Part shown: in pieces, positions 46,871 through 48,116 of the stretch
How the letters are laid out: each line of letters opens with the position of its first letter
Numbering within the stretch: position 1 is the stretch's first letter
NCBI GenBank assembly: GCA_963781585.1
Contig: CAWAGQ010000011.1
Span: 128,001-192,000, forward strand
DNA length: 64,000 nt
Source: an uncultured Gemmatimonadaceae bacterium
Lineage (GTDB): Bacteria > Gemmatimonadota > Gemmatimonadetes > Gemmatimonadales > Gemmatimonadaceae
Reading direction: 5' to 3'
Position numbers and translations under genes: made by a program
Notes under the pieces: model-generated
What the model was told of the DNA's origin: nothing
The model's input: only the letters and a program-made list of their open reading frames with translations
The model's database searches: none

Positions 46871-46942
46871 ACCGCGGAGGCCGCAGAGGACACAGAGGTC
46901 CGGCAGGCGGCGACAGCACGCCGGTGCAGCTCTCTGCGGCCT
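46871..46942. repeat. REP-like palindromic element interrupted by IS110 (remainder at 48088-48094)
   Basis: Left arm ACCGCGGAGGCCGCAGAG (46871-46888) is a 17/18 inverted match to the reconstructed right arm CTCTGCGGC-CT-CTGCGGT. Confidence 0.8.
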
Positions 46943-46948
46943 TGTATG

Positions 46949-47120
46949 TCTTCATTGAAGAGTGTTGGTTCGGGACGGCGGCAGCTCGATCATCGTGGCC
47001 GGGGCGTACAGAGCCCGTCGCAGAGTAGGAGCGCCGCCCCACCGATCGCTCGAAGCCCGAACAGCTACCTGGGTCGACGAGAACCCGCATCTTGCAAGGC
47101 AGGGCGCGCGCGATCCCAAC
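46949..47120 (+). ncRNA. IS110 bridge RNA (target-binding and donor-binding loops)
   Basis: Two stem/internal-loop/stem domains whose loops contain TCGTGGCC and CGCAGAG (target) and ACAGCTAC and CAAG (donor). The RNA ends are approximate. Confidence 0.85.
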
Positions 47121-47134
47121 GCGGAGTGCCACAG

Positions 47135-48070
47135 ATGTCCTACGTGGGGATTGATGTCAGTAAGGCGACCCTCGACGTCGCCGTGCATGCGGGGGCGACG
47201 CAGCAAGTGCCCAATGACCCCGCCGGCTGGGCGCGCCTCATCACGCACCTCCGGACCGTGGAGGCCGCGCTGGTCGTGCTCGAAGCCACCAGTGTCTACC
47301 ATCGGGGCGTGACCACGGCGCTCGTGACGGCGGGGATCCCGGTCGCGGTGGTGAACCCGCGCCAGGTGCGCGAGTTCGCGCGCAGCACGGGGCAGCTCGC
47401 CAAGACGGATCGCCTGGATGCCGCCGTGCTCGCCCGCTTCGCCGCCATGGTGCGCCCCACGCCCCGACCGATTCCAGACGACGCCACGCAGGCGCTGGCG
47501 GCGCTCCTGGAGCGCCGCCGCCAGCTCCTCGAGATGCTCGGCGCGGAACAGAACCGGCTCGCCGTGGCGCGGCCCGAGGTGCGCGCCAGTGTCCGGCAGG
47601 TCCTGCGCACGCTGGAGAAGGCGTTGGCGGCGACGGACGCTGACGTCGATCGCTGGATCCGGGAGAGTCCCGTGTGGCGGGCGGAGGAGGCGCTCTTGCG
47701 CAGTGTGCCGGGCGTGGGGCCGCAGACGGCGCGGTTGCTCATCGCCGCCCTCCCCGAGCTGGGGCGCCTAACGCGTCGCGAGATTGCGGCCTTGGTGGGC
47801 GTGGCCCCGCTCGCCTGCGATTCCGGCACGCTGCGCGGGCGCCGCCGCTGTTGGGGCGGACGCCGGCACGTGCGGGCCGTGCTGTACATGGCTGCGCTCA
47901 CGGCCAGTCGCTGCAATCCCGTGCTGCGGCCGTGGTATCGCCAGCTCCGCGCGGCGGGCAAGCCGGTGAAGGTCGCCCTGACGGCGTGTATGCGTCGGCT
48001 CCTCACGACCCTCAATGCCATGGTGAAAACGCAAGCGGCGTGGCGTCCGCCCGTCGCAATTGTTCCTTGA
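47135..48070 (+). CDS. IS110-family DEDD recombinase (311 aa)
   Basis: [36 protein letters not shown], and DSG carrying the putative catalytic Ser. Confidence 0.96.
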
Positions 48071-48116
48071 CTTTTAACACAGCTACTCTGCGGTGAAAAA
48101 GATTGCGGTGAAGAAA

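Follow-up and report, generated by a model that had tools for sequence, protein, structure and literature searches.

Positions 46943-48087 of the DNA analysed herein, a 64,000-nucleotide stretch from an uncultured Gemmatimonadaceae bacterium (contig CAWAGQ010000011.1, positions 128,001 to 192,000; hereafter the window, numbered from its first letter), are best explained, with a probability of roughly 0.88, as a single, apparently intact insertion sequence (IS) of the IS110 group that carries a bridge RNA. An earlier reading of the same DNA, made from its sequence alone, had proposed an architecture for bridge-RNA-guided recombination of the IS621 type, and this is supported by the protein, by covariation within the RNA, and by covariation between the guides and the flanks. 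The analyses presented below demonstrate the anatomy of the element, its family membership and both kinds of covariation; as such, it is a new example of a known bridge-RNA system and brings no new mechanism.

Relatives of the element were gathered in one scan of genome assemblies, which returned 79 loci (numbered with the prefix L) at 48-65 % identity, with the clade being present in assemblies of Gemmatimonadota, Chloroflexota, Acidobacteriota and Proteobacteria. Left ends were taken from 65 of 70 stretches, with the near-duplicates L010, L014 and L045 and the aberrant L062 and L063 omitted. Counts of guide covariation also exclude L041, L047 and L075 (whose stretch is wrong or truncated) and L049 (whose left boundary is uncertain), and the family comparison of the left target guide additionally excludes L017 (no left flank).

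Ends, recombinase gene and bridge RNA

46941-46942, plus strand: left copy of the CT core, the only dinucleotide found at both junctions; the ends of five of six multi-copy relatives agree
46943-47134, plus strand: non-coding left end, with the right donor TGTAT at its start; it encodes the bridge RNA and contains the covariance-model match
48079-48085, plus strand: left donor (LD), the last 7 nt of the element, from the sequence and the ends of relatives
48086-48087, plus strand: right copy of the CT core, from the sequence and the ends of relatives

The element is bracketed by CT dinucleotides at 46941-46942 and 48086-48087 (sequence read over 46500-48600), and CT is the sole dinucleotide common to both junctions. 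The element proper thereby spans 46943-48087, or 1,145 bp with one core counted. Its left end begins with TGTAT at 46943 and its right end closes with ACAGCTA at 48079-48085, with flanks of CTGCGGC (46934-46940) and CTGCG (48088-48092) on the left and right, respectively. Every coordinate and string that the sequence-only reading had given for these CT-bounded ends and flanks is present in the sequence. The left end is non-coding, as it had also stated, although its length measures 192 nt (46943-47134) rather than 190 nt; the right end amounts to 15 nt.

These ends are shared by the clade. Most relatives have a single TTGTAT 150-320 nt 5′ of the gene, and a parse of 78 sequences shows that nearly all loci in which an end is present have the same ends. 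With regard to boundaries other than CT in other copies, which the sequence-only reading had regarded as contrary to its proposal, CT ends are found in five of the six multi-copy relatives, where copies from the same genome diverge at CT/TGTAT on the left and at ...GTTG-CT on the right. For four of these five, likeness continues for a few bases into shared target sequence, a run-on such as site-specific insertion would be expected to produce. The sixth multi-copy element (L072/L074/L078) displays similarity that passes both ends and extends into a larger shared repeat, and its copies are thus nested within that repeat. The right-end tip of relatives takes the form TTGAC-N-A(A/C)ACAGTTG-CT; the element in the window follows this end design but possesses its own tip, ACAGCTA.

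Two further observations concern copies within single genomes. L008 and L010 are 99.9 % identical copies from one genome that both have CT at the right junction, with one of them having CT and the other AT at the left junction (L010, near 2794); this core difference may be a mismatch left by recombination. L031 comprises two copies in opposite orientation within 3 kb.

The protein-coding and promoter-like features of the element are as follows.

47123-47126, plus strand: Shine-Dalgarno-like GGAG, 8 nt 5′ of the start codon, read from the sequence
47135-48070, plus strand: recombinase gene, 311 aa, from Pfam, NCBIfam and Protein Data Bank (PDB) matches
48067-48072, plus strand: −35-like TTGACT in the right end, overlapping the stop codon, at a position conserved in relatives
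46945-46950, plus strand: −10-like hexamer TATGTC, 17 nt past the right-end TTGACT when the ends are joined, as judged from sequence only

The recombinase has the domain layout of the family, with an N-terminal DEDD RuvC-like domain (Pfam PF01548, DEDD_Tnp_IS110, E 8.5e-27) and a C-terminal Tnp domain (PF02371, Transposase_20, E 2.8e-17), and it matches the NCBIfam equivalog NF033542, ‘IS110 family RNA-guided transposase’, with 218.9 bits against a cut-off of 140. The only relatives of solved structure are ISCro4, which we take to be an engineered bridge recombinase (E 1.3e-35), and IS621 (E 9.3e-35), both aligning over residues 2-299. Residues D7, E50, D92, D95 and S230-G231 lie opposite D11, E60, D102, D105 and S241-G242 of IS621, respectively, and D7, E50, D92, D95 and S230 are invariant in 25 relatives. 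For IS621, residues D11, E60, D102, D105 and S241 are described as essential or catalytic (PMC11208158). Relatives of the protein number in the thousands, the nearest of which are 76-80 % identical, 311-314 aa long and mostly located on short metagenome contigs; amongst named elements, ISMno7 comes closest, with 50.7 % identity across 97 % of the protein. The enzyme had been characterized as compact at 311 aa; the length is correct, but it is ordinary for the clade (311-314 aa) and falls inside the published size range of 300-460 aa (PMC11208160).

When the two ends are joined, a promoter would seemingly be rebuilt across them, consisting of TTGACT, a 17 nt spacer and TATGTC. Amongst 63 distinct junctions from relatives, the hexamer 21-16 nt from the right-end tip is TTGACN in 48, and the left-end hexamer 3-8 nt past the core is mostly TATNNT (TATCTT in 29, TATGTC in 4). 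No sigma-70-like site was found in the integrated arrangement. In IS621, the −35 element is described as lying in the right end and the −10 element in the left end, with the promoter rebuilt upon circle formation (PMC11208160); weak expression of the bridge RNA is reported from integrated IS621 (PMC13626964), and the absence of an integrated-state promoter would fit with this. Separately, a terminator-like hairpin with a T-rich tail, identified by consensus match only, occupies 48040-48057, within the last recombinase codons and just before the −35-like hexamer.

The bridge RNA itself is predicted to contain the following stems.

46977-46987, plus strand: 5′ strand of the outer stem of the target-loop domain (domain 1), pairing with 47029-47038, with A46983 bulged
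47002-47016, plus strand: target-loop inner hairpin GGGC/GCCC with a 7-nt loop, 47002-47005 pairing with 47013-47016
47029-47038, plus strand: 3′ strand of the target-loop outer stem, pairing with 46977-46987
47044-47049, plus strand: 5′ strand of the donor-loop (domain 2) closing stem, GATCGC, pairing with 47110-47115
47055-47058, plus strand: 5′ strand of the donor-loop middle stem, GCCC, pairing with 47102-47105; 96 % of cells pair in relatives
47071-47086, plus strand: donor-loop inner hairpin GGGT/ACCC, 47071-47074 with 47083-47086; 97 % of cells pair in relatives
47102-47115, plus strand: 3′ strands of the donor domain, middle stem at 47102-47105 and closing stem at 47110-47115, from pairing and relatives

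The left-end RNA thus listed forms two stem-loop domains with an internal loop in each, kept by covariation. Each stem of the two nested systems that had been read from the single sequence pairs as described, and comparison with relatives supports them. The outer stem of domain 1 (46977-46982 with 47033-47038, and 46984-46987 with 47029-47032) pairs in 98 % of cells, with changes on both sides in 10 of its 11 pairs, and the inner hairpin of this domain pairs in 96 % of cells, with all three modelled pairs being compensatory. A MAFFT alignment of the 65 left ends gives 95-97 % pairing and many double changes for the outer stem of domain 1 and the two inner stems of domain 2, but only 56 % for the inner hairpin of domain 1 and about 50 % for the closing stem of domain 2. 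These low values reflect misalignment, which was settled by RNAalifold, a permutation test of duplex energies and a covariance-model alignment. RNAalifold predicted 26 pairs from 62 sequences, and 18 of these show compensatory changes. The closing stem of domain 2 is too variable to align; however, its cognate segments in relatives pair with −10.96 kcal/mol, compared with −8.40 ± 0.32 kcal/mol for swapped segments and −9.21 kcal/mol for the best of 200 permutations.

A covariance model made from 60 related left ends, with the window left out, matches 46975-47118 on the plus strand with 78.1 bits (E 1.1e-15). In total, 81 matches at E <= 1e-5 were obtained amongst the 81 sources searched. A match adjoins the gene in every source except L021, for which upstream DNA is lacking, and L062 and L063; L031 has two. 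Across 81 relatives, the covariance-model alignment has 97.2 % of its stem cells paired, and both partners have changed in 18 of 24 pairs; in controls where the partners were shifted by 1-3 columns, pairing does not exceed 44 %. Having been fitted to the model, this alignment is biased towards it, with the MAFFT and RNAalifold results representing the unfitted versions. A second match in the window (38779-38892, minus strand, 17.3 bits) lies inside a 927-aa frame and involves a short motif only, and was thus taken as chance.

The two loci with distant matches, L062 (1621-1733) and L063 (1635-1748), have the bridge-RNA match some 1.25 kb 5′ of the recombinase gene (start near 2995). Both come from one Dehalococcoidia genome and are 83 % alike from about 1605 to 3879, which points to an element with extra DNA probably separating the RNA from the gene.

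Guides for the right target and the donor

47019-47025, plus strand: right target guide (RTG), 7 nt, exact reverse complement of the core plus right target, 48086-48092
48088-48092, plus strand: right target (RT), the 5 nt read by the RTG, from the sequence and relatives
47026-47027, plus strand: target-loop handshake dinucleotide (UA), complementary to donor positions 6-7 (TA, 48084-48085)
47061-47069, plus strand: left donor guide (LDG), ACAGCTAC plus a C at the second core position, corresponding to the right end and core C, 48079-48086
47089-47090, plus strand: upstream part (AU) of the discontinuous right donor guide (RDG), pairing with AT at 46946-46947
47095-47098, plus strand: core part of the RDG, CAAG, reverse complement of CTTG at 46941-46944
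47099-47100, plus strand: donor-loop handshake dinucleotide (GC), complementary to target positions 6-7 (GC, 46939-46940)

In the bridge RNA as described for IS621, the first loop reads the target and the second reads the donor (PMC11208160). Across about 60 relatives the loop strands covary with the flanks, in the same strand sense as in Durrant et al., and the guide-flank covariation that had been put forward as a check on the proposal is thereby confirmed.

For the RTG, CGCAGAG (47019-47025) is the exact reverse complement of CTCTGCG in 7/7 positions, as had been claimed. The latter 7-mer has 7 occurrences in 128,000 strand positions, and due to this rarity a match in a fixed register is very unlikely by chance. 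In relatives, 393 of 413 RTG cells are Watson-Crick paired and 45 of 59 distinct pairs are perfect, compared with 202.5 ± 8.4 cells when shuffled; restricting the comparison to the five non-core positions leaves 275/295 against 84.5 ± 8.4.

The LDG is similarly clear, with ACAGCTAC (47061-47068) matching the left donor plus core C at 8/8 positions, in agreement with the sequence-only reading. Its seven non-core positions match in 222 of 224 cells from relatives (186.5 ± 3.4 when shuffled), and positions 3, 5, 6 and 7 of the guide and the left donor vary together. Mismatches occupy the second core position in 26 of 32 pairs, C being the commonest base there (17/32), so the C in the window is no defect.

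With regard to the RDG, CAAG is the reverse complement of CTTG (46941-46944) in the sequence, as had been noted, and L015, the only relative with CTAG at the start of its left end, also has CTAG in the loop. The guide extends beyond this tetranucleotide to take in the AU four to five bases 5′ of it, forming a discontinuous 6 nt (4 + 2) that is wider than the 4 nt originally assigned to it. All four relatives with a changed donor at the positions facing the AU still pair, three by compensatory change and one by G·U. Discontinuous pairing has been described for IS621 (PMC11208160).

Both loops also harbour handshake dinucleotides, which were absent from the earlier account. In the handshake as reported, each 3′ guide is followed by two bases that, once strands have been exchanged, pair with the other partner rather than with their own (PMC11208158). 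Both dinucleotides of the element pair at 2/2 positions in this manner: UA faces the donor TA and not the target GC, whilst GC faces the target GC and not the donor TA. Together with the adjoining guides, this makes 47019-47027 the exact reverse complement of the right junction (48084-48092), and 47095-47100 the reverse complement of the left junction (46939-46944). The first handshake base of the target loop follows donor position 7 in 58 of 60 relatives, including three of the four loci with A at that position (the window, L002 and L006), and in the donor loop 53 of 60 relatives have a first handshake base that pairs with target position 7, compared with 43.5 ± 1.8 when shuffled.

It could be argued that the left end is a mere structured 5′ leader or regulatory region of the transposase mRNA, with coincidental matches to the flanks. 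The closing stem of the second domain does lie near the ribosome-binding region in several relatives, and small RNAs have been proposed to modulate expression of IS110 recombinases (work cited in PMC11208160). Against this, the loop strands change with the flanks in about 60 independent insertions, with the stems staying paired, and a leader has no reason to follow the sequence of an insertion site; such an explanation is thus highly improbable.

Left target guide and insertion site

46934-46940, plus strand: left target (LT), the 7 nt of flank that immediately precede the left core
46988-47001, plus strand: 5′ strand of the target-binding loop, containing the left target guide as originally read, TCGTGGCC, at 46993-47000
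46871-46888, plus strand: left arm of an intergenic palindrome, 17/18 complementary to 46932-46942 plus 48088-48094 with the element removed

The left target guide is the weak link of the system. Of the seven left-target positions, four form Watson-Crick pairs with 46993-46999, two form G·U pairs and one is mismatched, whilst C47000 pairs with the core C; in other words, TCGTGGCC (46993-47000) and CTGCGGCC display five identities, two G·U-compatible positions and one mismatch, just as the sequence-only reading had it. In this register 7 of 8 positions are paired, and 10 of 13 across the whole loop strand, with a p value of about 0.01-0.03. When any of seven registers is allowed, 285 of 6,118 CT sites do as well over 8 nt.

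A number of observations weigh against the element being an intact bridge-RNA system at a cognate site, and several of them concern this guide. In the register as read, the 8-nt match is equalled at 159 of 6,117 CT sites in the window, and the 10/13 over the 13-nt strand at 68 of 6,117. Moreover, about 8.6 % of shuffled family pairs do as well as the left target guide, because the left flanks of the clade share C-rich ends. A structure-aware alignment places the core positions at C46999-C47000, such that the register above lies one base 3′, and the family-standard register pairs at only 3/8 positions (p 0.69), no better than chance. The 5′ strand of the target loop also contains 3-4 extra bases that are seen in none of the 61 other sequences and that could be a lesion.

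Beyond this guide, folding of the left end as a single sequence is no better than that of shuffles (z = −0.09), with the minimum-energy fold pairing the two guide strands with each other. The fold check proposed earlier is thus uninformative for the left end alone, but supportive of the stems once homologues are aligned, and the claim of structure is drawn from relatives. No family in Rfam release 15 reaches its gathering threshold, and the highest-scoring one, sX15 (RF02234), matches the opposite strand with 22 bits (threshold 55, E 0.57). In addition, the −10-like hexamer of the window ends in C, unlike that of most relatives. Finally, no further copies of the element were found in the 64-kb window using blastn and tblastn, and a single copy does not demonstrate recent activity.

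The weakness of the left target guide would be explained if a true bridge-RNA IS had entered a non-preferred site, either by a half-match or off-target event or with a left guide decayed by an insertion of 3-4 nt, the likeness to the left flank then being partly chance. The 3/8 score in the family-standard register and the presence of only five Watson-Crick pairs in the shifted one are in keeping with this, as is the uniqueness of the extra loop-strand bases amongst 62 sequences, and half-match insertion has been reported for IS621 (bioRxiv 10.64898/2026.08.31.748434). Nevertheless, the donor-loop handshake GC fits target positions 6-7 (GC), which is an independent sign of a cognate left flank. 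Two unrelated loci, L006 and L076, have left flanks that match at 8/8 and 7/8 positions, respectively, with the same +1 shift, and a further 17 loci are shifted the opposite way, indicating that the spacing of the guide is not fixed. The use of two G·U pairs is likewise seen in L002, the nearest full relative, and 30 of 60 true family pairs reach only 7 or 8 of 8. Taken together, entry at a non-preferred site seems unlikely, and from sequence comparison we accept the left target guide as originally read as probably the better account than a non-cognate left half.

More tentatively, and with clear doubt attached, the left guide may read its target one base nearer the inner hairpin than is the case in most relatives, using two G·U pairs and a loop strand that is 3-4 bases longer. 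If this is true, where the left guide lies in the loop and how long it is would be a variable, evolvable feature of bridge RNAs, and prediction of targets or reprogramming of such orthologues would need a register search rather than the fixed 9-nt rule of IS621.

The insertion site lies between two converging genes, encoding a luciferase-like monooxygenase (plus strand, ending at 46850) and an M14 peptidase (minus strand, ending at 48117). The 8-mer CTCTGCGG is present on both sides of the element, at 46932-46939 and 48086-48093, as would be the case if a classical transposon, with ends at 46940 and 48085 and no RNA guide, had generated an 8-bp target-site duplication. This 8-mer, however, is no rarer than chance in the window (4 matches against 5.2 expected), relatives display no duplication past CT, and a duplication leaves the guide-flank covariation unexplained. 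The upstream palindrome arm also carries the motif twice in tandem; thus, the right-hand tandem is original and the element split one arm of an intergenic palindrome. Removal of the element with one CT restores this 18-nt arm at 17/18 positions, with the 121-nt spacer folding at −64.0 kcal/mol, whereas additional removal of one 8-mer leaves no inverted repeat >= 12 nt and a fold of −46.7 kcal/mol. As the palindrome is restored only with the CT core, target-site duplication was ruled out and rejected, the classical transposon thereby being a most improbable account of the locus.

A perfect 11-nt inverted repeat (46878-46888 with 46932-46942) persists in the integrated state. The palindrome arm was found nowhere else in the 64-kb window, so there is no sign of a repeated REP-like family within these 64 kb. 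The other arm presents an unoccupied near-cognate site (46876-46895, minus strand), with 7/7 matches in the right half and, in the same register, five Watson-Crick pairs, one G·U and two mismatches in the left half. A further short repeat, TGCGGTGAA, occurs twice, 15 nt apart (48089-48097 and 48104-48112), between the right junction and the stop codon of the peptidase gene. Amongst relatives from different phyla, L015, L071, L064, L048 and L001 have right targets that resemble that of the window (CT followed by C[TC]G[TC]GG...), with L015 and L071 also sharing with the window a tandem repeat of the motif around the insertion; these resemblances could stem from shared guide ancestry or from a common type of repeat.

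Regarding the sub-threshold Rfam score, the match to sX15, a small RNA (sRNA) from a Xanthomonas plasmid, covers the full model (window 46959-47120, minus strand), and the sX15 consensus holds the reverse complement of the conserved donor-guide motif. According to the original paper, sX15 has a complementary counterpart, the sRNA asX7, and the chromosome of Stenotrophomonas maltophilia contains 10 homologues. Judging by these sequence features, asX7 may be the bridge RNA of an IS110 element.

Proposed mechanism and comparison with known systems

By analogy with IS621, excision of the element would join its two ends at the CT core, setting the right-end TTGACT 17 nt from the left-end TATGTC, and transcription from the left end would then yield a bridge RNA of roughly 160 nt. 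The 5′ strand of the first loop, which has the same sense as the left flank, would pair with the bottom strand, whilst the second loop would read the joined ends of the element itself, with ACAGCTAC corresponding to the right-end tip and AU...CAAG to the start of the left end. The handshake dinucleotides, being complementary to the other DNA partner, would favour strand exchange, and the 311-aa DEDD/Ser recombinase would bind the RNA and exchange strands at CT, leading to insertion without target duplication. In this way, the element would have landed in the right arm of a GC-rich palindrome between two converging genes. Transcription, circle formation, catalysis and reprogrammability are what we infer from this analogy, and it is in the same sense that we infer the element to be ‘intact’ and ‘reprogrammable’.

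The IS110 family has already been surveyed in thousands of copies, and the element leaves knowledge of the mechanism unchanged. What it adds is one well-annotated natural orthologue, together with its clade, to a family that is mined for genome-editing recombinases. Its traits in this respect include small size (311 aa), a naturally long RTG of 7 nt, and guides for which each position is mapped to a coordinate of the window, with the handshake guides already arranged in the way reported to favour strand exchange. For annotation of the genome, the element accounts for a 1.1-kb break in the intergenic palindrome between the converging genes.

Within the wider family, 85.7 % of catalogued IS110s are predicted to carry bridge RNAs (PMC11208160). 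The IS1111 group and its seekRNAs share the recombinase family and the RNA-guided logic of the element, and are described as having the RNA in a long right end, along with sub-terminal inverted repeats of 7-17 bp (PMC11208160). The element differs in having a 15-nt right end and its RNA in the left end, and, as in the IS110 group, it possesses no long terminal or sub-terminal inverted repeats and no duplication past the 2-bp core. ISPpu10 of Pseudomonas putida is reported to use a target with a stem-loop 5′ extension (bioRxiv 10.64898/2026.03.19.712850), and the element similarly sits just 3′ of a GC-rich inverted repeat (46878-46888/46932-46942). For the clade, however, the 60 nt on the target side fold better than controls in only 27 of 62 relatives (mean difference +1.2 kcal/mol), and a structural gate is thus not supported as a clade feature.

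The best-described point of comparison is IS621 of E. coli (PMC11208160, PMC11208158), which, according to these reports, resembles the element in its two protein domains and catalytic residues, and in a left-end RNA with a target loop followed by a donor loop. Also common to both are loops in which the 5′ strand has the sense of the top strand and the 3′ strand is complementary to that strand, a CT core inside the guides, handshake dinucleotides, and a −35 in the right end with a −10 in the left. The proteins are nonetheless distant (124 bits over residues 2-299; 326 aa for IS621 and 311 aa for the element), and the natural RTG is 7 nt long in the element compared with 4 nt in IS621. Unlike IS621, the clade of the element has no conserved 5′ stem-loop before the target domain, with some relatives having only ~20 nt there. 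The register and loop length of the left target guide differ as well, and the Rfam-style and covariance-model matches of the element are confined to its own clade. The ISCro4 transposase (PDB 9t56), compared by protein only, is the best match of solved structure and aligns at the same motifs, yet it too is distant.

ISMno7, a RefSeq-named element of the Methylobacterium nodulans plasmid pMNOD01, has the same end design as the element: its right end reads TTGACC and then ACACAGCCG-CT, its left end starts CT-TGTATCT, its donor guide matches its own right end, and it scores 96.9 bits with the covariance model. It differs in the phylum of its host, in its donor and target guides, and in half of the residues of its recombinase.

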